DNA of 57,749 nucleotides, taken from the IMG/VR virus record IMGVR_UViG_3300045988_122638. The stretch is one strand, 5' to 3'. Made by a program: the position numbers and the translations under genes. Below the pieces are notes generated by a model that searched no databases, had not been told where the DNA came from, and worked only from the letters and a program-made list of their open reading frames with translations. Positions within the stretch are counted from its first letter, which is position 1; each line of letters opens with the position of its first letter. Source of the stretch: a virus. Shown piece by piece: positions 5,307 through 57,749 of the stretch.

Positions 5307-7187
5307 TCAGCCGACTATGTTGCGAGAATCGGCTGTCACATCTTCTTCAATTGCAATAGCCGAATAAACTCTTGTAAGTGCTCCTGAGCATCTAGTTTCA
5401 AGAAGTGATTTTTCTTGATTGAATTCGATGTCAAACTGTGTAAAATGAGTGACTTCTCCGCCCTTTGTAGCACCCAAAGAATAATCTGCAAGATTTACAA
5501 TAATGCCAAGAATTTTCTTCTTCTTAGAATCTGTAGTTGTTCTTGTCTTGCCTTCAAACTGCTCGGCTGTATAGATATTACCAACATTAAGTGCTGAAGC
5601 AAGCTCTGCTTTTGATGAGTAGATTCTTCTACCATTCATATCGCGAGCAAGTAACATAACATTCAACATGTGTGGCGTCATAAAGAAATCAGGTGTACCA
5701 CTTCCTTTGTAGTTTTCTCTCGCATGAAGAACCGTATTAATAATTGCCTCTGCGTAGATATAGTTTTCTCCAAAACTTACACCCGTTCCAGTACCCTGAA
5801 GTTCCTTCTTAGCTTTATCAATATCAAGATCTACGTGAATTGTATATAGATCGTCATCTGTCCAAATCGGTCTGATTTTGTCTGGTGCAATCTTATCCTC
5901 AGCACCTTCGTCACGACCGTCTCCGAGCATCATTGCCGTAGCAAGTTCTTCGTTAAGCATTATTCTATCAATATTATATAGATATTTCACATAATCGAAA
6001 TCTGTAATATCGATGATATCATCTCGGTGAAGAGCATTCTTTACATATACAGTCTGTGGATCAGTTGTTCTTCTTACAAGTTTGAAGTTTCCTGCAAGAC
6101 TCTTCTCTTTACCCTTCTTATAGCCCTTTGCTCTTAAATCATTAATATTTCTTATATCGACTTGGCTGGTTCTTATTCTTGAGATAGGGCTCTTATGTAC
6201 CTTACTCATAACAACCGAGATCCAATCCTGATCGTTTGTGATGATTTCCGGCGCACCAGGACGAACTTCTTGATATTCAGGGAATAACATGGTTACATTA
6301 CCTGTTCCGTTTTGAGTGAATCCACCACTCAAAGCGTCATGTTGCAACCCATTGCTATCGGCATAAATTTCTAGTGCCGTTTGTAGACTGCCGACTTGAC
6401 TTGATTTAGCCAACTTAATAATGTCCTCTTGGACGCTATGCGATAGATAATCCTGTTTTCTTTCATCGTTATCAAATACGTTATGCTTCATATTTCCGTC
6501 TCCTTTTTTATCGTCATCGTCGTTTTCGTTTTTATTCGCGTCTTCCAACGCCATTCCAATAAGTGCATACACAACTTCTTGTTGTTCTTCTGTTAATTCA
6601 TTAAAAACTTCTTGAATATTTTTTTCTTTTTTTCTTTTTTTTTCTTTTTTCTCGTTATCATCTCCATTTTCTTTTTGTTGGTCTAATTCTTCCTTGTTCA
6701 TTTTGTTTCCCCCGCTTTCTTTTTCGCTTGAATGATAGATCACAAGTGCATTTTCGTCATAGTTTGCCCATAATCCATCGTCCTCATCTTCACCATGAGC
6801 CATAACGAAGTCGATATACGCCCCTGGATTAGATCCCGCCAGCACGAGACTTAGTTCTTTTATAGAACCATGTATCACGTCGCCACCGACTTGCTTCAGT
6901 TTATTAGCATAAATTGATAACGACCTTACATCGCCGTTATGTACTAGTTGTTTTGCATGCTCGCCTTCCTCTGTATCATTAAATGTACAATAGGCGTATA
7001 CACCATCTTTGCGATTCTCTAATAAAGCATGTCCTAAAACCGCCTGTGAATCTTTATGGTTATGGTTCCAAATCAAAGGAACCGTTGCTCCGTCGTTATC
7101 TTTGAACGCATCTTTTCGGATGGTTCTACCATCTTCGCATAATAAATCATTTCTAGTGGCATAACCACTAAAATCATAATTATTCAT
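5307..7187 (-). CDS. Prohead protease / scaffold-like linker / HK97-fold major capsid protein fusion
   Basis: N-terminus (PLIWNHNHKD...ELSLVLAGSNPGAYI) looks like an HK97-type (S78/U35) prohead protease. A charged low-complexity linker follows (KKEKKRKKEK, DDDDKKGD). The C-terminal ~400 aa are capsid-like. No separate protease or capsid gene exists elsewhere. Confidence 0.7.
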   Translation of the reverse strand: MNNYDFSGYATRNDLLCEDGRTIRKDAFKDNDGATVPLIWNHNHKDSQAVLGHALLENRKDGVYAYCTFNDTEEGEHAKQLVHNGDVRSLSIYANKLKQVGGDVIHGSIKELSLVLAGSNPGAYIDFVMAHGEDEDDGLWANYDENALVIYHSSEKESGGNKMNKEELDQQKENGDDNEKKEKKRKKEKNIQEVFNELTEEQQEVVYALIGMALEDANKNENDDDDKKGDGNMKHNVFDNDERKQDYLSHSVQEDIIKLAKSSQVGSLQTALEIYADSNGLQHDALSGGFTQNGTGNVTMLFPEYQEVRPGAPEIITNDQDWISVVMSKVHKSPISRIRTSQVDIRNINDLRAKGYKKGKEKSLAGNFKLVRRTTDPQTVYVKNALHRDDIIDITDFDYVKYLYNIDRIMLNEELATAMMLGDGRDEGAEDKIAPDKIRPIWTDDDLYTIHVDLDIDKAKKELQGTGTGVSFGENYIYAEAIINTVLHARENYKGSGTPDFFMTPHMLNVMLLARDMNGRRIYSSKAELASALNVGNIYTAEQFEGKTRTTTDSKKKKILGIIVNLADYSLGATKGGEVTHFTQFDIEFNQEKSLLETRCSGALTRVYSAIAIEEDVTADSRNIVG

Positions 7188-12212: not shown

Positions 12213-12266
12213 ACTTTGGTCATCCTTTCTGAAAGATTGGTATTATAAGATTATCGTTCTTACGTA

Positions 12267-12405
12267 GTTTTCATGTAGCACTCAAAGAGGTTCATAAAGT
12301 TATATGACTCTATTCGCCGAAAGGAGTTAAGCGCGATCCAAAAACAAACAAAAACCAACACCGCATCAACAACCTTATGAACCTTTTAGAATACTACATG
12401 AAAAT
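12267..12405. repeat. Long imperfect inverted repeat: 31-nt arms at 12267-12297 and 12375-12405, 77-nt loop
   Basis: Arm 1 is gttttcatgtagcactcaaagaggttcataa. The reverse complement of arm 2 is attttcatgtagtattctaaaaggttcataa. About 25 of 31 positions match. Confidence 0.7.
12292..12318 (-). promoter_or_regulatory. Degenerate 12th copy of the 26-nt motif, with spacing 1 nt shorter; possible late or packaging promoter
   Basis: Minus strand: GGCGAATAGAGTCATATAACTTTATGA. The CA and TTATGA blocks are in register and the GCGAA block is shifted by 1. Lies about 80 nt upstream of ATG 12212. Confidence 0.3.
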
Positions 12406-12427
12406 ATAAAACGTTTTTTAAAAATTG

Positions 12428-12490
12428 CCCCCGGAGAATTTTCAAGGAGGCGGGCGATGAGGGAGGGGGGTGCTAATTTTGAGACCCCCC
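12428..12490. other. GC-rich island with G6/C6 hairpin; candidate cos/pac site
   Basis: ccccggag...ggaggcgggcgatgagggaGGGGGGtgctaattttgagaCCCCCC sits in an otherwise AT-rich 650-bp non-coding region upstream of the packaging genes and the HNH gene. Confidence 0.4.
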
Positions 12491-12897
12491 TTACACCTCA
12501 AAGCCGAACATTACAATGCAACGACTATTGACCATGATATTCTATCTATACCGTCATTTTTAAATCATAAAATTTTCATTATCATACAATATATCGACTT
12601 ATTAATGTGTTTTGTATCTTTTTATGATGGCACAAAAGTGTCACTCTTTTATGGTAGCTTATACGATGGCATACACTTACATATTCGCATTCCACTAATA
12701 GAGGTTTAGTATAGAACAACACATTAAATGAATGCTAATGTCTTCATACTGCTAAATCAATGTTTATAGCCAAACATGATCGAAGCCATTATATCTCAGT
12801 AAATGTCAAACTGCTTTTATACTTCTGTCAAAGTATCATCATCTATTTTTAGATATTGCCGTTTTTTCATGATAATTACTTCAAAGCTCAACAAATT

Positions 12898-13146
12898 CTA
12901 TGACGATTTAAATTTTTTAGTGACTTTTTTATAAATGTTCATAAAATCATATTTAATAATTTCATCAATTGCTCGTTCAATTTCACGATCGTTTTCTTCT
13001 TCACTTAATTGATCAGAAGTATGAGAAACGCGATCCAAATACGAACAGGAATTGTAACCTTTGTCAAGATCGAACATATACCATTGATCGAATTGGTCAA
13101 ATGGATCGAACGGATTATCGATTGTGGTTAACGCACATTTAATCAT
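12898..13146 (-). CDS. Conserved small phage protein (TTIDNPFDPFDQFDQW motif), function unknown
   Basis: 82-aa ORF, last gene before the non-coding region. Confidence 0.6.
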   Translation of the reverse strand: MIKCALTTIDNPFDPFDQFDQWYMFDLDKGYNSCSYLDRVSHTSDQLSEEENDREIERAIDEIIKYDFMNIYKKVTKKFKSS

Positions 13147-13162
13147 AACTTCACACTTCCTT

Positions 13163-15919
13163 TCAACTATTTAAATATTTCGAAACTGTTGATGTTGACT
13201 TTCCTAAAACTTCTGCGATTTCAGCATTTGTATAACCTGATGCAGCCAAAGCTTTGATTCTACTAACTTGAGCAGAGGATAACGCACCATTAGACTTAGG
13301 GGTAGCCTTTTGTCTTATTACATCTTGATCCGCATACCTTAGTATCTTTGTCAATTTGGAATCGCTTACTGCACCAGACTGAATAGCTTCCCATTCTTTA
13401 TCTGTTATGTTAATTCGCGTACCTTTTCCGCTTGCACCGACTGCTATACGAGCCTTGTTAATGGCAATTTGTTTTACTTTTTTCAATGCTTTCTTATCTT
13501 TTTCTAATTCTGGATTAGCTTGTTTTTTCGCCTTTACTTCAGAATTAGCAAGAACTTGAGCTCTTCTTTCTCTCGGTGCATTAAGTGCAGCAAGATTTAG
13601 TTTCGCATTTAATGAATCCACTTCTGACTGATAGATACGTTTGGCGTTTGCATTGGTAGCAAGTCTACCAGTATATACCGCCTCCTTACGAGCATCGTTA
13701 GCCATGGCTTTCATTTTATTAGCATAATCAGCATATGCATTCTCCTTAGGGTGTCCCGATGACAGCTTATGTGCATCGTCTGTTACTGACATCAATGACA
13801 CATTCGTCATCGCTTGTTTGGTCTTTCCGGTCTTCGGATCAACGTATGTTCTGCCTGACTCTTTGTATAATATGGTCCCCTCAGGTTTGGTAGGATCATA
13901 CCAACTCTTTCCTTTTTGATTTATTCTCCCTGAACCTTTTCTTTCAGGCACTTGAGTCTCTTGCTTACGTCTTGATAGTAGGGTTGACGCCCCGCTCTCT
14001 TTTAATTCTCCATCCATGTTTTGATGACGCTGGTAGGTCTTCTTTAGCAAGGCTATATCGTTGTCTTTTTCGGATTGTTTATAATCTAATTTGTGCTTTT
14101 CAGCATCAATTACTACCATACTATGTTTTACAGCTTTAGCTATATCTTTCTCAGGTGCCCCGCGCAGTGTCATATCAGTTATAAGATTTGACACTATGCC
14201 CATTTGTTTTTGGGTTTCGCTTTTAGTCATGACTTTCATTCCCTCATGATAAGCATACTGAGTCTTAGGATCGAATCCCTCCAAATCTTTTAACGGTGGT
14301 GTTGATTTTATACGAACTTTATTGTTTACTGGTATAACTGTTACTTGATCGCCATCAAAATCAGCCCCTGATAATCGTTCAGCCACTTTAGCGTTAATAC
14401 CAACGGCATCGACAACATTTCCCAATATCCTTTTCGCTGATGGATTTTTATTATTAACCGTCAATACCGGTATTTCAAATGTACCACCATGAGGAAAACG
14501 AATTAATGCCACCTGTTCACCGTTTTTATAGTTAGGAGCATATACTTCTGTTTCTTTCATTGCCGATATAGGTAAAATAACTTGAGTATTCTGCCTAGGC
14601 AATGCGGCTGCTTGTAAATGTACCGCCGCTGCATCACAATCATTTGCAAAATCCATTAACATTTTCTTTTTTACCGTCGGATTAGTAAGAGATTTTATCT
14701 CTGAGTATTCTGCCTCTCTATCTGCATATGTTAAATCCAGCTGTTTCTTTATCATACTCAAAGGTTGCTTCGATAAAAATTGCTGGGATAGATTTCTTGA
14801 CATCGTATCCCAATCCCCTTCTTCTTTAAGTTTGTTAATGGCAGAAAGTTTTTTAGTTCCATCTTTAGGATCTATATATTCACTTTGACCATTGGCTTTG
14901 ATTAATGCACCAAACGGATTTTCAGGATCATCTTTTATTGGTTTTAACACATTCATTTTATCGGTCCCCGACTTTTTATTTGTATTAAACACGATATCTA
15001 CTCCATCTGGAATATCATCAGAATACATAGCCATACCTTTCAAGTAATGGGTACCGTCTACAAGTATACGTACTTGCGCGTAGTGTGAATTTCCTAAATC
15101 CAAATCGGGTACACCACGTCTTATTTCGATGACACCATCCTTATTCAAACCGCCCTCATCACCATAGCATATACTAATTCTTCTAGAATCTATACTGGTT
15201 GGCTTTTTTAATTCGTTGAATGTTGCACCACCATCAGTAGAATGATAATTACCCAAAGATTGCACATCACCCATATTTTGATATACATCTCTATATTCAA
15301 TTTCCGGATTACACAAAACTTTAGTGTTCGATTGCTGATGGGCATTAGTCACTTGAGGAATTCCTACACCATAAACGTTGTATCCCTCACGTTCCAAAAT
15401 ATAAAGAGCTTCTTTCATAGTATTTTCCGATATACCAATCTCTCGCTCTGCACCGGCACCAACATCTATCATACTTTTTTTCTTTAATTCTTTCTTTAAA
15501 ATATCAGCAGCTTTTTGAGCACGATTTGCTCTTTCGGCAGTATTGTCGTTCAAAAGTGAACGAACAGAAGAATCATATTGGTATCCCATGATTTTTGCAA
15601 TTTCATTAAGGGATTTACCATCCGCTCTTAGTGATTTAGCACGGTCAACTTCCAATTGACGTCGTTCATGCGACGCTAATTGTTTTTGCACTCTGTATTG
15701 GGTAGTGCTTAAACCCAATTCATGTGCGATTTCAGTTTCCGTCATACCAGATTTTTTTAGTTCATCTATTCTAGATAGAAAATCTCCGCTATGTTGAAAC
15801 GGATTTTCTCCACTCCCCCACGGGTAACGTCCTGAGTGTCGTGGTGTACCATAATGGGCTAATGCCTTACCACTGGAACCGCAACCAAAATATGATTTTA
15901 TTTCGTCTATAATACTCAT
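13163..15919 (-). CDS. YonO/QDE-1-like single-subunit two-barrel RNA polymerase with N- and C-terminal HTH modules
   Basis: 918 aa. LIRFPHGG (aa 472-479) lies upstream of SGADFDGDQVTV (DFDGD = aa 520-524, nt 14348-14362), which is the beta-prime/RdRP-type metal-binding signature. HTH-like units: MTETEIAHELGLSTTQYRV, KSLNEIAKIMGYQYDSSVRSL and C-terminal YTNAEIAEVLGKSTSTVSKYL. Confidence 0.65.
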   Translation of the reverse strand: MSIIDEIKSYFGCGSSGKALAHYGTPRHSGRYPWGSGENPFQHSGDFLSRIDELKKSGMTETEIAHELGLSTTQYRVQKQLASHERRQLEVDRAKSLRADGKSLNEIAKIMGYQYDSSVRSLLNDNTAERANRAQKAADILKKELKKKSMIDVGAGAEREIGISENTMKEALYILEREGYNVYGVGIPQVTNAHQQSNTKVLCNPEIEYRDVYQNMGDVQSLGNYHSTDGGATFNELKKPTSIDSRRISICYGDEGGLNKDGVIEIRRGVPDLDLGNSHYAQVRILVDGTHYLKGMAMYSDDIPDGVDIVFNTNKKSGTDKMNVLKPIKDDPENPFGALIKANGQSEYIDPKDGTKKLSAINKLKEEGDWDTMSRNLSQQFLSKQPLSMIKKQLDLTYADREAEYSEIKSLTNPTVKKKMLMDFANDCDAAAVHLQAAALPRQNTQVILPISAMKETEVYAPNYKNGEQVALIRFPHGGTFEIPVLTVNNKNPSAKRILGNVVDAVGINAKVAERLSGADFDGDQVTVIPVNNKVRIKSTPPLKDLEGFDPKTQYAYHEGMKVMTKSETQKQMGIVSNLITDMTLRGAPEKDIAKAVKHSMVVIDAEKHKLDYKQSEKDNDIALLKKTYQRHQNMDGELKESGASTLLSRRKQETQVPERKGSGRINQKGKSWYDPTKPEGTILYKESGRTYVDPKTGKTKQAMTNVSLMSVTDDAHKLSSGHPKENAYADYANKMKAMANDARKEAVYTGRLATNANAKRIYQSEVDSLNAKLNLAALNAPRERRAQVLANSEVKAKKQANPELEKDKKALKKVKQIAINKARIAVGASGKGTRINITDKEWEAIQSGAVSDSKLTKILRYADQDVIRQKATPKSNGALSSAQVSRIKALAASGYTNAEIAEVLGKSTSTVSKYLNS

Positions 15920-15922
15920 GAC

Positions 15923-16480
15923 TTACTCCTCTCGTTCTTTCATTTTTGTTATAATCTTATCGGAAACAACTATTCGATCCATTATAGGTGCAATATCTTC
16001 GGCGGTAGGAACATCATATATAATTTCGTCGTTTTGATAAATTCGAAGTTCCATACCAATTTCACCCGGTTTAATTCCATATTCCAAACAAAAAAGAGCA
16101 GCGTATATTCGTAACTGCTCCATATGTGCCGGAATTACTCCAGTCTTCAAATCGTGTATTCTTAAAAAGTTGTTTTTAAATATAATAGCATCAGCTGTAC
16201 CAAAACAATTATCTGAGTAATATAAAATTTGTTCAGGTATCATTCTGAACCCTATAGCATCATTTACATAAGAATTCAAGGTTTTCTTAGATCTTGGAAG
16301 TTTTTGCGACAATCTTATACATTGTGCCGCAAATTCATGTAACTCAGTTCCTCTTTGAATAGCGAGAAATTTAGAATACGATTCTGCTATTTTATCATCA
16401 GAATATCTAATCCAATGATATTTACTAGCACCTAAGAAAGCATGTCTACCTTCAAGATTCGAATGCTTGTTGAAGTTCAT
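15923..16480 (-). CDS. PD-(D/E)XK (RecB/Cas4-like) nuclease
   Basis: GTADAIIF...LRIHDLKTG...QLRIYAALF fits the D...D/ExK...Q..Y pattern. Confidence 0.6.
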   Translation of the reverse strand: MNFNKHSNLEGRHAFLGASKYHWIRYSDDKIAESYSKFLAIQRGTELHEFAAQCIRLSQKLPRSKKTLNSYVNDAIGFRMIPEQILYYSDNCFGTADAIIFKNNFLRIHDLKTGVIPAHMEQLRIYAALFCLEYGIKPGEIGMELRIYQNDEIIYDVPTAEDIAPIMDRIVVSDKIITKMKEREE

Positions 16481-16742
16481 TCAATACTTCCTCCTTATTC
16501 TCTGGACAAATAAATCTTGAGAATGACATCTCATTCATTCTGTCCACGTAATATTCTTGATTTGGTCGTTTCTTTTCGTTCGCTGATTTTTTGCATTCCA
16601 GAGTCGCCCATCTATCTTTATAAAATATTGTTAAATCGGGTAATCCTTGAATGTCGTTAGCATCGTTTTTTGTAACTATACAACCTGGGAACATTTCTTT
16701 AAGCTCTTTTTTTAATTTAGCTTGGAAATTTCTCTCTAACAT
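16452..16742 (-). CDS. VRR-NUC domain nuclease
   Basis: 96 aa. GLPDLTIFYKDRWATLECKK...RPNQEYY is a VRR-NUC-type PD-(D/E)XK motif. Confidence 0.6.
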   Translation of the reverse strand: MLERNFQAKLKKELKEMFPGCIVTKNDANDIQGLPDLTIFYKDRWATLECKKSANEKKRPNQEYYVDRMNEMSFSRFICPENKEEVLNELQQAFES

Positions 16743-16815
16743 TCTTTAAATTCTCCTTTCTGCAAAAATATAAAAAGAAAATGATGCGTATTTTTTTACG
16801 TATATCTCCTTCTCT

Positions 16816-16841
16816 CCATAAAAGGGCATGTTTTTTTCGCG
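16816..16841 (-). promoter_or_regulatory. Conserved 26-nt promoter-like motif, copy 1
   Basis: Minus strand: CGCGAAAAAAACATGCCCTTTTATGG. Directly follows a terminator and lies about 75 nt upstream of ATG 16742. Confidence 0.6.
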
Positions 16842-16842
16842 T

Positions 16843-16878
16843 ACGAAAAGAAAGAGCCTGTGTAGTTAACACAAGCTC
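16843..16878 (-). terminator. Rho-independent terminator
   Basis: Minus strand: GAGCTTGTGT-taact-ACACAGGCTC followed by TTTCTTTT. Confidence 0.75.
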
Positions 16879-16915
16879 TCAATAAAAAATATAAATTATC
16901 ATTTAACAAAAGTCA

Positions 16916-18148: not shown

Positions 18149-18174
18149 CCATAAAGGAAAATGAAAATTTTGCG
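18149..18174 (-). promoter_or_regulatory. Conserved 26-nt promoter-like motif, copy 2
   Basis: Minus strand: CGCAAAATTTTCATTTTCCTTTATGG. Its 3' end runs into the RBS GGAAGGAG. Confidence 0.55.
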
Positions 18175-19615: not shown

Positions 19616-19647
19616 TAAATAAAAAGAAAGAGCCCTTGTTAGGACTC
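19616..19647 (-). terminator. Conserved cassette terminator, copy E
   Basis: Minus strand: GAGUCC-uaacaa-GGGCUC followed by UUUCUUUUU. The ORF stop TAA lies in the loop. Confidence 0.65.
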
Positions 19648-19851
19648 CCCTTCTGATTTTTTGTGATCCTTAATGCATTTAGCGACCCAGCACATGTTGG
19701 ATGCTATTACGCCAACTAAAGCACCAGCCATGATTCCTTTCGTCGTTCCTTGATGTAATGCCTCATCGTAGAACGCGGTAAGTGTATCACCATGTGTTTT
19801 TAGTAATTCGTTAATAGTATCAATTCGTTCTTTCGTCATTTTAAATTTCAT
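19639..19851 (-). CDS. Intron-embedded small membrane protein (70 aa); not a homing endonuclease
   Basis: AAAGGAG RBS. Translation MKFKMTKERIDTINELL... with hydrophobic GIMAGALVGVIASNMCWVA. The track ORF to 19950 includes intron core and promoter. Confidence 0.6.
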   Translation of the reverse strand: MKFKMTKERIDTINELLKTHGDTLTAFYDEALHQGTTKGIMAGALVGVIASNMCWVAKCIKDHKKSEGES

Positions 19852-19865
19852 AAATATCACTCCTT

Positions 19866-19891
19866 TCATAATAGGAGTTGTTTTTATCGCG
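19866..19891 (-). promoter_or_regulatory. Conserved 26-nt promoter-like motif, copy 4 (inside the intron)
   Basis: Minus strand: CGCGATAAAAACAACTCCTATTATGA, followed by AAGGAG and ATG 19851. Confidence 0.55.
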
Positions 19892-21034: not shown

Positions 21035-21060
21035 CCATAAAGGAACCTGCATTTTTCGCG
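21035..21060 (-). promoter_or_regulatory. Conserved 26-nt promoter-like motif, copy 3
   Basis: Minus strand: CGCGAAAAATGCAGGTTCCTTTATGG, about 70 nt upstream of ATG 20962. Confidence 0.55.
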
Positions 21061-35336: not shown

Positions 35337-35362
35337 CCATAATACAAATTGTTTTTTTCGCG
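35337..35362 (-). promoter_or_regulatory. Conserved 26-nt promoter-like motif, copy 8
   Basis: Minus strand: CGCGAAAAAAACAATTTGTATTATGG, about 45 nt upstream of ATG 35292. Confidence 0.6.
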
Positions 35363-36458: not shown

Positions 36459-36488
36459 TAAAAAAGAAAAGAGTCCTTGTTAGGACTC
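36459..36488 (-). terminator. Conserved cassette terminator, copy D
   Basis: Minus strand: GAGTCC-taacaa-GGACTC followed by TTTTCTTTTTT. Confidence 0.65.
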
Positions 36489-36494
36489 ATCTTC

Positions 36495-36647
36495 TTATTG
36501 TTTATCGGCGACTGCCTTTGCGACTTCCTTTGCAATTGTTTCTTTCATTTCCGCTTTTTCTGTAAAGCTACTTGCGATAGGTACCGCAATAGCTAATATA
36601 GATATAATCGGTTTTGCTACTTTCATAACTTGCTTAATGTTTATCAT
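36495..36647 (-). CDS. Small membrane peptide (50 aa; below the track cutoff)
   Basis: GGAGGTG RBS. Translation MINIKQVMKVAKPIISILAIAVPIASSFTEKAEMKETIAKEVAKAVADKQ. Confidence 0.5.
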   Translation of the reverse strand: MINIKQVMKVAKPIISILAIAVPIASSFTEKAEMKETIAKEVAKAVADKQ

Positions 36648-36664
36648 AATGCATTCACCTCCCT

Positions 36665-36690
36665 TCATAATAGAGATTGTTATTTACGCG
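36665..36690 (-). promoter_or_regulatory. Conserved 26-nt promoter-like motif, copy 5
   Basis: Minus strand: CGCGTAAATAACAATCTCTATTATGA, then AGGGAGGTG and ATG 36647. Confidence 0.55.
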
Positions 36691-37474: not shown

Positions 37475-37508
37475 AAAAAATAAAAGAAAAGAGCCCTTGT
37501 TAGGACTC
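37475..37508 (-). terminator. Conserved cassette terminator, copy C
   Basis: Minus strand: GAGTCC-taacaa-GGGCTC followed by TTTTCTTTTATTTTTT. Confidence 0.65.
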
Positions 37509-37515
37509 TGTTTTC

Positions 37516-37734
37516 TTATTGTTCATTGGGAACAACAGAATTGAGTAATTTTTCAAGTCTGTCTGTGAATTCCCTTTGTTTATCCACACATGCCATTCCT
37601 GTTGTAGATAGTTCGGCGGTTTTTGAAGCGATCATAGCTACTAAAGGATCGTTTGGTCTCTCCTCAATTAGCTTACACACTAAAAATCCTACCTCTCCAA
37701 TCTCCCGGAATAATTTTTTTGTTGTTTCTAACAT
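37516..37734 (-). CDS. Hypothetical small protein (cassette C cargo)
   Basis: 72 aa with an AAAGGAG RBS, flanked by motif copy 9 and terminator C. Confidence 0.6.
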   Translation of the reverse strand: MLETTKKLFREIGEVGFLVCKLIEERPNDPLVAMIASKTAELSTTGMACVDKQREFTDRLEKLLNSVVPNEQ

Positions 37735-37776: not shown

Positions 37777-37802
37777 CCATAATACGTATTGTTTTTTTCG
37801 CG
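37777..37802 (-). promoter_or_regulatory. Conserved 26-nt promoter-like motif, copy 9
   Basis: Minus strand: CGCGAAAAAAACAATACGTATTATGG, about 40 nt upstream of ATG 37734. Confidence 0.6.
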
Positions 37803-38738: not shown

Positions 38739-38764
38739 CCATAAAAGAAACTGTTTTTTATGCG
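38739..38764 (-). promoter_or_regulatory. Conserved 26-nt promoter-like motif, copy 10
   Basis: Minus strand: CGCATAAAAAACAGTTTCTTTTATGG, about 35 nt upstream of ATG 38701. Confidence 0.55.
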
Positions 38765-38830: not shown

Positions 38831-38862
38831 AAACAAAAAAGAAAGAGCCCTTGTTGGGACTC
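38831..38862 (-). terminator. Conserved cassette terminator, copy B
   Basis: Minus strand: GAGTCC-caacaa-GGGCTC followed by TTTCTTTTTTGTTT. Confidence 0.65.
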
Positions 38863-38868
38863 AATCCT

Positions 38869-39165
38869 TTAATCTGTTGAATAAATACTACCGTTCATAG
38901 TTTTAGGAATACAAGAAATATCCCAAACTCGAATAACTTTCAGTTCGTTTATCAATGAGCACCATTCGGTATTAGAAGCTTTAAATACTATATGCCATAT
39001 ACGACCATCTGACCAAATCCTAATACGTCCATATAATAATGTTTTGACGCAATTCCGATTTTTGTTAATAACCTCTATGGTTTTTAGTACATCATCTTCA
39101 AATACAATAAAATGATGAGTTTTGATTATGAACTTATTCATAAGTTTGTTAAGTGTATTGTTCAT
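38869..39165 (-). CDS. Hypothetical protein (cassette B cargo)
   Basis: 98 aa with an AGGAGGAG RBS, flanked by motif copy 6 and terminator B. Confidence 0.6.
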   Translation of the reverse strand: MNNTLNKLMNKFIIKTHHFIVFEDDVLKTIEVINKNRNCVKTLLYGRIRIWSDGRIWHIVFKASNTEWCSLINELKVIRVWDISCIPKTMNGSIYSTD

Positions 39166-39180
39166 ATTTATCTCCTCCTA

Positions 39181-39206
39181 TCATAATAGGGTATGATAAA
39201 TATGCG
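39181..39206 (-). promoter_or_regulatory. Conserved 26-nt promoter-like motif, copy 6
   Basis: Minus strand: CGCATATTTATCATACCCTATTATGA, then TAGGAGGAG and ATG 39165. Confidence 0.55.
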
Positions 39207-40138: not shown

Positions 40139-40164
40139 TCATAATACGCCTTGTAAATTTCGCG
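40139..40164 (-). promoter_or_regulatory. Conserved 26-nt promoter-like motif, copy 11 (drives the tRNA-like gene)
   Basis: Minus strand: CGCGAAATTTACAAGGCGTATTATGA. Confidence 0.55.
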
Positions 40165-40189: not shown

Positions 40190-40513
40190 ATGATTAAAAT
40201 AAATGAAAAATATTGTCCTATTTGTAAAAATAAGTTGAAATACTACGACAGTGTAAAAAGAATAGTGAAAACTAAAAGAGGGAAAACTAAAAAGATTGTA
40301 ATTCGCAGACTTCGTTGCAGTTCGTGTAAATCATTACATAGAGAGCTCCCAAGTTCAATAATACCATATAAAGAATATGAGTCTGAAATAATCATTGGTG
40401 TAATTGAAGGTCTGATTACTCCTGAAACTCTAGGATACGAAGACTATCCTTGCGAGATGACTATGAATCGTTGGATCAACGAAAAAAATAGACTTTTAAA
40501 AATGTATTTTTAG
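40190..40513 (+). CDS. Zn-ribbon protein, possibly DUF6431-like; candidate lysogeny-side regulator
   Basis: CPICKN...RRLRCSSCKSLHRELPSSIIPYKEY. Same strand as the integrase and directly upstream of it. Confidence 0.5.
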   Translation: MIKINEKYCPICKNKLKYYDSVKRIVKTKRGKTKKIVIRRLRCSSCKSLHRELPSSIIPYKEYESEIIIGVIEGLITPETLGYEDYPCEMTMNRWINEKNRLLKMYF

Positions 40514-40522
40514 ATGTAGGAG

Positions 40523-40551
40523 TTGACAATTCCTACACTTTGATGTATAAT
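40523..40551 (+). promoter_or_regulatory. Consensus sigmaA promoter for the integrase (TTGACA-17-TATAAT)
   Basis: TTGACAattcctacactttgatgTATAAT. The -35 box is embedded in the inverted repeat GTAGGA-N9-TCCTAC. Confidence 0.7.
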
Positions 40552-47356: not shown

Positions 47357-47387
47357 TAAAAAAAAGAAGGAGCCCTTGTTAGGACTC
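47357..47387 (-). terminator. Conserved cassette terminator, copy A
   Basis: Minus strand: GAGTCC-taacaa-GGGCTC followed by CTTCTTTTTTTT. Confidence 0.65.
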
Positions 47388-47457
47388 TTTGGTTTTTGTT
47401 TATTTCTTTATACGTTTGATTCCATATTCACAAGTAATCATAACTTATCACTCCTTT

Positions 47458-47483
47458 CCATAATAGGAGCTGTTATTTTTGCG
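47458..47483 (-). promoter_or_regulatory. Conserved 26-nt promoter-like motif, copy 7 (overlaps the XRE stop codon)
   Basis: Minus strand: CGCAAAAATAACAGCTCCTATTATGG. Followed only by a 13-codon mini-ORF (47400-47441) and terminator A. Confidence 0.55.
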
Positions 47484-47943
47484 TATGTTTAAGTTCTTTT
47501 TCTGTCCAAATTTTTAAAGTTTCGATAGATTTCGAAATATTTTGAAGTTCGGTTTCGATTTTCACAAAATCGCTTAGTTCACTCTCATCAATTTTACCGT
47601 CTGAACTTATTTCTATTAACCTTTCCTGTTGACGTTTTATAGAATTTAGTGATGCAATTAACGGTAAAACTATTTTTTCCAGTTCCAATTCTTTGTCAGC
47701 AATAGGAAAAACATATCGTTTACCTATTTCACATTCCTCTGTGCAATATTTATTACACAACATAGGTTTATCATAAACTTCAGATAAAATTACTACTTCG
47801 TTCGGATAAATGCGTAACTTATCATTTTCGATACGTTCAAGTCGTGATGCATCAATCTTTCGTACTCCGTTGTCGTCTGTCATAGCACATACTTCTTCTC
47901 TGGATAATCCGCTTTCTTGCCTTATCTTTTTATATACATTCAC
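47473..47943 (-). CDS. XRE-family HTH transcriptional regulator (candidate CI-like repressor)
   Basis: 156 aa with a GTG start. IRQESGLSREEVCAMT...LERIENDK is the HTH, followed by a C-terminal coiled-coil. Has its own consensus sigmaA promoter. Confidence 0.75.
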   Translation of the reverse strand: MNVYKKIRQESGLSREEVCAMTDDNGVRKIDASRLERIENDKLRIYPNEVVILSEVYDKPMLCNKYCTEECEIGKRYVFPIADKELELEKIVLPLIASLNSIKRQQERLIEISSDGKIDESELSDFVKIETELQNISKSIETLKIWTEKELKHTQK

Positions 47944-57694: not shown

Positions 57695-57749
57695 TGCAAA
57701 TATCTCTAATGCAGCTCCTATTATTACTAATGAAGTTGCTGAGCGTAAT
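57695..57749. repeat. Second copy of the 55-nt terminal repeat (redundant with nt 1-55)
   Basis: Identical string at both window ends. Confidence 0.95.

Follow-up and report, generated by a model that had tools for sequence, protein, structure and literature searches.

A predicted single-chain two-barrel RNA polymerase with helix-turn-helix units at both ends, and a promoter-like element conserved in its phage lineage

Single-chain two-barrel RNA polymerases (RNAPs) are viewed as models for the ancestor of all cellular RNA polymerases. Eight residues are common to all two-barrel RNAPs (D709, R738, K743, R962, P964, D1007, D1009 and D1011 in QDE-1; PMC2919709), and the acidic residue and the two basic residues of the beta-type barrel have D837, K979 and K987 as their counterparts in Rpb2. 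Among phage proteins, YonO, P23-45 gp64 and crAss gp66 share this fold and are DNA-dependent RNAPs, and each of them has start sites or promoters of its own. The 2017 paper on YonO reports that the enzyme transcribes only the late operon, and states that its promoter, and whether YonO recognises it alone, are unknown. Ruprich-Robert and Thuriaux (2010) counted proteins of phage 1706 among five mutually distant "YonO-like" families. Koert et al. 2021 (bioRxiv 10.1101/842583) then described one family as a signature gene of an actinophage supercluster and of Lactococcus and Faecalibacterium phages, with an HHpred match to PF05183, a DxDGD loop, a second RNAP motif and helix-turn-helix (HTH) units at both ends. 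The 918-amino-acid protein considered here is encoded by the IMG/VR record IMGVR_UViG_3300045988_122638, the whole stretch of which (57,749 nt, counted from its first letter) is called the window below. It is an added member of this known, computationally described family and does not represent a new kind of system. What is new in this analysis is a conserved, lineage-specific promoter-like element of 26 nt.

The protein is probably an active single-chain two-barrel RNAP that transcribes the phage's own genes under the guidance of its HTH units, with the 26-nt motif as the best candidate promoter. A preliminary description, made from the DNA letters of the window, had singled out the open reading frame (ORF) by its DFDGD and LIRFPHGG strings, and all the strings quoted there lie where they had been placed. 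SGADFDGDQVTV spans amino acids (aa) 517–528 and contains DFDGD at aa 520–524 (nt 14348–14362, which read GATTTTGATGGCGAT on the minus strand); LIRFPHGG is aa 472–479, 46 residues separating R474 from D520; and VIEIRRG, THYLKGMAMY and NTNKK are aa 263–269, 290–299 and 312–316, respectively. In an alignment with 100 diverse homologues, 46–58% identical to the query, R474, P476, H477, S517, G518, A519, D520, D522, G523 and D524 are unchanged in every sequence, and so are D261, G262, R284, K294 and G295. This constancy shows that the motif residues are not there by chance.

Five of the eight two-barrel residues map unambiguously, to R474, P476, D520, D522 and D524. The remaining three are most likely D261, R284 and K294, because these are invariant, occur in the same order, lie in predicted beta-strands and form a "DG...VR...KG" pattern as in the YonO family, where an alignment built from the YonO sequence of the SPbeta record gives D249-G250, R266 and K271-G272. 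The earlier suggestion that aa 262–316 belong to a beta-like barrel thus gains from the three invariant residues and from the beta-strands of the structural model, while the mapping residue by residue is indirect. Two helices that follow the catalytic barrel are highly conserved as well (M573, G574, N578, L579, D582, M583, A596, D605, K608 and H609 are invariant in the alignment) and may occupy the position of the bridge-helix region in QDE-1-like enzymes.

The preliminary description had also proposed comparing a structural model with known polymerases, and this comparison found the fold of double-psi beta-barrel polymerases. The AlphaFold2 (AF2) model built on the 100-homologue alignment has a mean predicted local distance difference test score (pLDDT) of 87.2 and a predicted template modelling score of 0.80. 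When it is compared with the PDB by Foldseek, QDE-1 is the best match (E 1.2e-8, probability 1.00); maize and Arabidopsis RDR2 (E 1e-7 to 3.5e-6) and P74 gp62 and P32 gp64, which are of the Thermus phage non-virion RNAP type (E ~1e-6), are also found, likewise with probability 1.00, and there are weak matches to crAss-like phi14:2 gp66 (E 6e-3) and to the largest subunits of Pol I and Pol II (5e-3 to 3e-2). Models of the RNA-dependent RNA polymerase (RdRP)-like and P23-45 types match too in a fold search of a viral model library. At the sequence level, the Pfam family RdRP (PF05183) matches aa 510–614 only, with 17.2 bits (E 0.0023), below the gathering threshold of 23.8; it is matched by 27 of 50 family members at E ≤0.01, the best value being 2.9e-6. 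By this measure the protein is a distant relative of PF05183 and not a member. A phmmer search of PDB sequences with the protein gave no polymerase match, and the profile of the 100 homologues gave HTH matches only against the same sequences. The Foldseek matches, the Pfam RdRP matches in the family and the invariant catalytic residues nevertheless bear out the earlier assignment to the single-chain two-barrel RNAPs of the QDE-1/YonO superfamily.

The label "YonO-type", on the other hand, does not hold by sequence. No match was obtained when hhalign compared the family profile with the single YonO sequence. A comparison of profile with profile aligns just 83 columns of the catalytic barrel with the YonO family, pairing LIRFPH with ILRSPH and ADFDGD with FDNDGD, and is not significant (E 0.026, probability 1.9%). 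The protein is no closer to YonO than to other two-barrel enzymes: it is YonO-like in kind but outside the YonO family, in agreement with Ruprich-Robert and Thuriaux (2010). No second polymerase-like gene was found among the window ORFs of at least 348 aa, each of which is otherwise assigned or has no polymerase match, so that within this size class the statement that the genome has no other RNAP subunit gene is upheld. Two of these ORFs, of 485 aa and 348 aa, have no clear function.

HTH-like strings at aa 59–77, 102–122 and 896–916 had been read as three units flanking the core, and all three are found again by independent means. The C-terminal unit exceeds the Pfam cutoffs for HTH_38 (46.2 bits, cutoff 27, E 3.8e-12), HTH_23 and Sigma70_r4_2 (27.2 bits, cutoff 25.7), and the C-terminal HTH domains are the only above-threshold Pfam matches of the whole protein. 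The two N-terminal units, N1 and N2, are below the Pfam thresholds (HTH_28 E 0.028); a hidden Markov model (HMM) built from the C-terminal HTH of the family recovers N1 (aa 49–73, i-E 2.8e-5) and N2 (aa 91–112, i-E 1e-3), and both are helix bundles in the AF2 model. With the same HMM, 56 of 100 members show two units or more, R120 of N2 is kept in 90 of the 100 homologues, and one consensus type, G-x-S/T-x-x-E-I-A-x-x-x-G-x-S-x-S/T-x-V/L-R/K, fits all three units. The units are thus real and family-wide, and they are probably paralogous. The match to sigma region 4 is a generic HTH resemblance and does not argue for a sigma function. The preliminary description had gone further and spoken of a polymerase-sigma fusion; the conserved promoter-like motif makes this idea more plausible without proving it. 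The HTH-flanked architecture had also been presented as unusual, which it is not: the whole family shares it, and with its publication by Koert et al. 2021 it is not new at the computational level.

The first 45 residues of the polymerase are predicted to be disordered, despite a near-invariant motif at aa 20–43. Indeed, G24, S29, G30 and R31 are invariant in the 100 homologues, and H22, Y32, G35–G37, P40 and Q42 are at least 90% conserved. No other ORF of the window has a second copy of this motif (GRYPWGSG), which might act as a signal for docking, packaging or processing.

The family is large and specific to phages. The protein matches phrog_4291, labelled "RNA-dependent RNA polymerase", over nearly its whole length (aa 18–917 against positions 10–906 of 909), and an identical protein sequence is already public on metagenome contigs. 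By tblastn, homologues of nearly full length, all below 60% identity, occur in the genomes of 250 isolated phages, whose hosts are Arthrobacter (95), Gordonia (55), Streptomyces (54) and Lactococcus (13), and also Curtobacterium, Microbacterium, Rhodococcus and Faecalibacterium. The best of them is the "putative RNA polymerase" of phage FP_oengus (AUV56548.1, 55.5% identity; others 37–50%). The homologues carry various labels ("HTH DNA-binding protein", "RNA-dependent RNA polymerase", "putative RNA polymerase"), and most actinophage records mention the HTH only. Metagenome protein collections contain at least 8,000 family matches, all with E ≤1e-5, and at least 954 family clusters at 50% identity (E ≤1e-30). 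GTDB includes relatives too, in genomes of Oscillospiraceae, Faecalibacterium, Christensenellaceae and Lachnospiraceae; the contigs that carry some of them measure 130–297 kb, which points to prophages of gut Clostridia.

The window is a siphophage genome of about 57.7 kb with 35% GC. Since bases 1–55 are identical to 57695–57749, the assembly closes into a circle of about 57,694 bp. Nearly all genes are on the minus strand, and PHROG searches identify tape measure, tail, TerL, portal and capsid/protease genes, a primase-polymerase fusion, a helicase and, on the plus strand, an integrase, the presence of which marks the phage as temperate by gene content. For a 626-aa protein (5307–7187, minus strand), phrog_3270 ("head maturation protease") is a full-length match, whereas the corresponding proteins of FP_oengus and Bilo are labelled major capsid protein; a protease/scaffold-capsid fusion, typical of the lineage, is the probable explanation.

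The 26-nt element has the form CGCGAAAAAAACA-N5-TATTATGG, or CGCG-N6-ACA-N5-TWTWATG(G/A) in summary. A scan of the window with up to 3 mismatches gives 8 matches, compared to 0.03 expected. Scores from a position weight matrix (PWM) are bimodal: 11 sites score at least 25 bits, all on the coding strand, and the next best reaches 17.7 bits. All 11 sites lie 5–225 nt upstream of a gene start, and at four of them a ribosome-binding site starts immediately after ...TATG(G/A). Promoters of a different type are found at two other genes: a canonical TTGACA-17-TATAAT (40523–40551, plus strand, 12/12) precedes the integrase, and a TTTACA-17-TATAAT with TG (48007–47979, minus strand, 11/12) precedes an HTH_3 regulator (47473–47943) that interrupts the tail/lysis region. 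This suggests that lysogeny-type genes use host-type promoters, while the lytic units carry the 26-nt motif. The HTH_3 regulator was considered as the reader of the motif and rejected, as it is not conserved in the lineage. A DUF6431 zinc-ribbon protein (40190–40513, plus strand, E 2.3e-28) is encoded directly upstream of the integrase.

The motif is conserved together with the polymerase-bearing lineage. In FP_oengus, Arcadia, Bilo and P078 (Table 1), all its copies belong to the coding strand, and most of them are found in the early/middle region. The RNAP operon is directly preceded by a copy in 14 of 14 genomes aligned (the window and 13 relatives), and two further relatives have degenerate or variant forms at this place. 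Among the 14 are 10 of 10 GTDB loci, where protein identity is 51–65% and no other DNA similarity is left. It was not found in FP_Epona, a phage of the FP_oengus host species without this polymerase, nor in the SPbeta region examined. A blind scan of 2.9 million IMG/VR viral contigs for the exact pattern yielded at least 118 motif-bearing stretches. All but three of these 118 (115) share proteins with known lineage members, and the RNAP itself is within the available few kb in 24. The motif thus marks the lineage of polymerase-bearing phages, whose hosts belong to two phyla (Actinobacteria and Firmicutes), and is essentially specific to that lineage.

These observations can be assembled into a mechanism. 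The catalytic centre would consist of the beta-like barrel, with D261, R284 and K294, and of the beta-prime-like barrel, with R474, P476 and the three aspartates D520, D522 and D524, which would bind Mg. The most likely job of the enzyme would be the DNA-dependent transcription of phage genes, independently of the host polymerase. The three sigma-region-4-like HTH units are proposed to supply sequence-specific DNA binding, so that no separate sigma factor would be needed. The candidate promoter would be the 25–26-nt CGCG-N6-ACA-N5-T(A/T)T(A/T)ATG(G/A) element that heads 11 transcription units in the window, and the start site would be the terminal ATG(G/A) or lie just behind it. One of these units is the RNAP operon itself, which suggests self-amplifying expression. 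A fuller version of this scheme, which we regard as possible but somewhat short of an even chance, has a self-sufficient, promoter-specific RNAP whose HTH units read a motif co-inherited in siphophages of Actinobacteria and Firmicutes and which would transcribe most of the lytic units, its own operon among them, with a positive-feedback switch gated by a hairpin-terminator in the leader and with the lysogeny genes left to host promoters.

Several points weigh against the transcription of motif-headed genes by this enzyme. The motif tracks the whole phage lineage and not the RNAP gene alone, so that another conserved factor could read it. Its 3' part in the window and in the actinophages is a good -10 element (TATTAT/TATAAT), which the host enzyme could use. 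The 12213–12897 gap before the main structural operon contains no copy of the motif (best PWM score 5.5 bits). Moreover, in a temperate phage whose RNAP operon itself depends on the motif, the first promoter after induction must need another factor, unless there is basal expression or the enzyme is delivered with the virion. The covariation between the N2 unit and the CGCG box is also weak: 15 of 15 enzymes with the N2 helix ES(S/T)(V/I)R have a CGC(G/A/T) box, and among three lineages that lack R120 the box is lost in two (P078 and L141) and kept as CGCA in one (L140), which with n = 3 is suggestive only. Finally, a literature search that covered few subscription papers found no experimental, biochemical or transcript-mapping study of any family member; the same search found no virion proteomics for the family and no prior description of the 26-nt motif.

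The best-surviving alternative, although unlikely, is a division of labour like that of YonO, in which the enzyme would serve only the late packaging/structural operon from a promoter near 12.2–12.9 kb, and the motif would be a sigma-A -10-type element combined with a regulator site. This is what the precedent of YonO, restricted to the late operon, would predict, and, as in SPbeta, the late module is the next one downstream of the RNAP gene, the two being separated by a long stretch of noncoding DNA. The motif heads early units beside the integrase, which after induction must fire without a pre-existing phage polymerase, and its TATTAT/TATAAT part would suit sigma. The motif has, however, no conserved -35 hexamer and no extended -10, and all FP_oengus copies have a T at the position of the -11 A that is essential for sigma. 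Phages of both Actinobacteria and Firmicutes keep the upstream half of the motif, no other lineage-wide DNA-binding protein was seen in them, and the lack of conservation of the HTH_3 regulator leaves the putative regulator site without that reader. The motif also precedes the TerL module in one relative (L011) and the tail-fibre/lysis genes in the window. As for the gap, genome or contig ends fall in the equivalent place in actinophages and in one linear metagenomic contig, which suggests that 12213–12897 is probably a cos/terminus region and not primarily a promoter region.

It is improbable that the enzyme is a polymerase with a role outside transcription, either an RdRP or a primer/R-loop enzyme that would act in replication or recombination with the neighbouring nucleases. 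Its closest solved relatives are the RdRPs of RNA interference, of which QDE-1 uses both template types, and several relatives of the window have an iteron-rich, origin-like region just upstream. Yet the phage has its own primase-polymerase and no RNA-silencing partners are present in it, all characterised phage members of the two-barrel fold are DNA-dependent transcriptases, and three HTH units of the double-stranded DNA type together with a lineage-specific promoter-like motif suit transcription better. Least probable is a DNA-binding regulator with a relic polymerase core, as implied by most GenBank labels ("helix-turn-helix DNA-binding protein"), by the actinophage records that name the HTH only and by the HTH-only Pfam matches above threshold, since none of the catalytic residues and none of about 50 further positions in the core vary between clusters at ≤50% identity, which is not expected of an inactive domain of about 700 aa.

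The polymerase gene is the third of four genes in an operon whose order (endonuclease, Cas4-like exonuclease, RNAP, acidic protein) is kept in FP_oengus, Arcadia, Bilo and metagenomic relatives; in Lactococcus phage P078 other genes replace the nucleases upstream of the RNAP. The acidic protein belongs to phrog_4303, found in 67 phage records from Arthrobacter to Faecalibacterium phages and always immediately downstream of the RNAP; it is possibly a cofactor or an inhibitor of the host RNAP. The operon is followed by the 685-nt noncoding gap 12213–12897, and then by phrog_4259, an HNH endonuclease and the TerL-portal-capsid module. Inside the gap, near 12470–12495, is a GGGGGG...CCCCCC inverted repeat.

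The operon transcript is predicted to start with a purine-rich segment, GGAGAGAAGGAGA, whose partner in pairing is a run of pyrimidines further downstream, with U's after it. An equivalent leader hairpin, with differing loop and stem sequences, forms in 8 of 10 sequences folded (window included), and may be a terminator/attenuator or a 5' stabiliser. The hairpin begins where the motif ends, which would fit a transcription start at this point. Five near-identical terminator-like hairpins (GAGTCCTAACAAGGGCTC and a T-run, minus strand) are found elsewhere in the window, at 19621–19662, 36462–36503, 37482–37523, 38836–38877 and 47361–47402. Several are only 60–250 nt downstream of a motif copy, so that in some cases there is only a very short unit, or no unit at all, between promoter and terminator. 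In relatives, a noncoding region which is rich in iterons and has an AT core lies just upstream of the RNAP-operon promoter and looks like a replication origin; the iterons of these relatives, including TGGCCAAAAAC, are not present in the window.

Table 1. Positions of the polymerase gene, its domains, the promoter-like motif and neighbouring features in the window, with the corresponding features of relatives
Feature	Position (nt)	Strand	Remarks
RNAP ORF	13163..15919	-	918 aa, ATG start; phrog_4291 full length, E=0; AF2 pLDDT 87.2; Foldseek QDE-1 E 1e-8
C-terminal HTH, aa 878-917	13169..13288	-	HTH_38/HTH_23/sigma-70 region-4-like; consensus SGYT..EIA..LG.S.STV.K
Two highly conserved helices, aa 566-609 (566-585, 590-609)	14093..14224	-	follow the catalytic barrel; inside the Pfam RdRP match
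Beta-prime-like double-psi beta-barrel, aa 444-531	14327..14590	-	R474-x-P476-H477, SGADFDGD (D520, D522, D524)
Beta-like double-psi beta-barrel region, ~aa 245-366	14822..15187	-	proposed D261, R284, K294; beta-strands 248-366
HTH unit N2, aa 93-125	15545..15643	-	helices 104-111, 116-123; recognition helix ES(S/T)(V/I)R with R120
HTH unit N1, aa 47-80	15680..15781	-	helices 47-56, 61-67, 72-99; consensus G.S..EIA...G.ST..LR
Conserved N-terminal motif, aa 20-43	15791..15862	-	HYGxxRxSGRYPWGSGxxP(Y/F)QH; pLDDT below 50
Acidic 82-aa protein, last operon gene	12898..13146	-	phrog_4303 E 2e-36; no Pfam match
Cas4-family/PD-(D/E)XK exonuclease, second operon gene	15923..16480	-	phrog_3953 E 2.7e-83; DUF2800; synteny
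Endonuclease, VRR-Nuc/resolvase-like, first operon gene	16452..16742	-	phrog_93 E 2.5e-15; conserved synteny
Leader hairpin ending in U-run	16771..16818	-	RNA fold -12.8 kcal/mol, z -2.7; starts at motif 3' end
Motif copy	16816..16841	-	CGCGAAAAAAACATGCCCTTTTATGG; directly upstream of RNAP operon, between terminator-like hairpin and first gene
Terminator-like hairpin and T-run	16845..16880	-	closes upstream unit, just before motif; same arrangement in FP_oengus
Motif copy	18149..18174	-	PWM 25.4 bits
Motif copy	19866..19891	-	
Motif copy	21035..21060	-	
Motif copy	35337..35362	-	head of replication-gene block
Motif copy	36665..36690	-	
Motif copy	37777..37802	-	
Motif copy	38739..38764	-	
Motif copy, weaker	39181..39206	-	PWM 25.0 bits
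Motif copy	40139..40164	-	start of leftward lytic genes, back to back with integrase region
Motif copy	47458..47483	-	upstream of tail-fibre-like and lysis genes
Motif in FP_oengus			12 copies (expected 0.07); CGCGAAAAAWnCA-N5-CTTTATGG
Motif in Arthrobacter phage Arcadia			8 copies; CGCGTAAATTACA-N5-TATAATG
Motif in Streptomyces phage Bilo			4 copies; CGCAnGWTTTACA-N5-TATAATG
Motif in Lactococcus phage P078			at least 9 copies, variant; TTTAAGTTTTACA-N5-TATAATGA
Leader hairpins in relatives	L005 9085-9131; L007 27707-27747; L013 9102-9139; L017 9086-9132		
Iteron regions in relatives	L001 6290-6480; L003 4680-4920; L141 8200-8560; L140 1670-1950		TTTGGCCAAAAACCCAC, GTGGCCAAAAAC, TGGGCCAAA, TTTGTCCCAT

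How the YonO-like branch finds its promoters is, according to the YonO paper, still open, and the candidate promoter described here makes the question directly testable. The family is far larger than that of YonO and is present in hundreds of phages that can be cultivated on Arthrobacter, Gordonia, Streptomyces and Lactococcus. If the proposed pairing of enzyme and motif is true, the QDE-1/YonO-like single-chain branch would have its first defined pair of promoter and enzyme, and the protein would be a natural polymerase-sigma fusion. Confirmation would also provide an orthogonal transcription system for both Actinobacteria and Firmicutes, and would correct the misleading labels "RNA-dependent RNA polymerase" and "HTH DNA-binding protein".

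Among the known systems, QDE-1 and the eukaryotic RdRPs (PF05183; PDB 2J7N and 7Y7P; RDR2 7W82) are the best structural match. They are likewise single chains, and QDE-1 has the same eight active-site residues, those of the beta-barrel according to the putative mapping of three positions, with 45 residues from R to D instead of 46. QDE-1 differs in that it has no HTH modules, is eukaryotic, acts in RNA silencing and uses RNA or single-stranded DNA templates, while the window protein is below the PF05183 threshold. YonO of SPbeta (839 aa) is also a single-chain two-barrel phage RNAP of similar size, with DG...VR...KG and RxPH...DxDGD signatures, and its gene is, as here, just upstream of the late operon and separated from it by a long noncoding gap. 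The YonO family, however, ends in an invariant CxxC...CxxC (C799, C802, C816, C819) where the window protein ends in an HTH, and the consensus of its alignment has no HTH-like segment, whereas the window protein has three HTH units.

The P23-45 gp64 type (P74 gp62, 8F5M; P32 gp64, 8F72) offers a single-chain two-barrel phage RNAP with its own conserved promoter motif. It differs by its size of about 600 aa, by a GC-rich promoter and by a synthesis that follows transcription of the gene by a virion RNAP; the paper that describes it is silent on HTH modules. The crAss-like phi14:2 gp66 (6VR4) is a phage-encoded, QDE-1-like two-barrel enzyme as well, but it is a virion RNAP, packaged and injected, with a solved chain of 2,166 residues, and its fold matches that of the window protein weakly (E 6e-3). 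T7-type RNAPs are functional analogues only: they too consist of one polypeptide, and a conserved promoter-like element of about 25 nt precedes many phage units. Their right-hand fold is unrelated.

The closest systems are those of FP_oengus, of the actinophage supercluster and of the Lactococcus 1706-like phages, which have the same HTH-core-HTH architecture, the same synteny and the same promoter-like motif. In the actinophage supercluster the family corresponds to the "HTH protein" groups of Arthrobacter (AM/AU/AW), Gordonia (DJ), Rhodococcus (CC), Microbacterium (EL) and Streptomyces (BI). Compared to these homologues, the protein of the window, which comes from an apparently temperate phage with 35% GC, differs only in sequence divergence and host.

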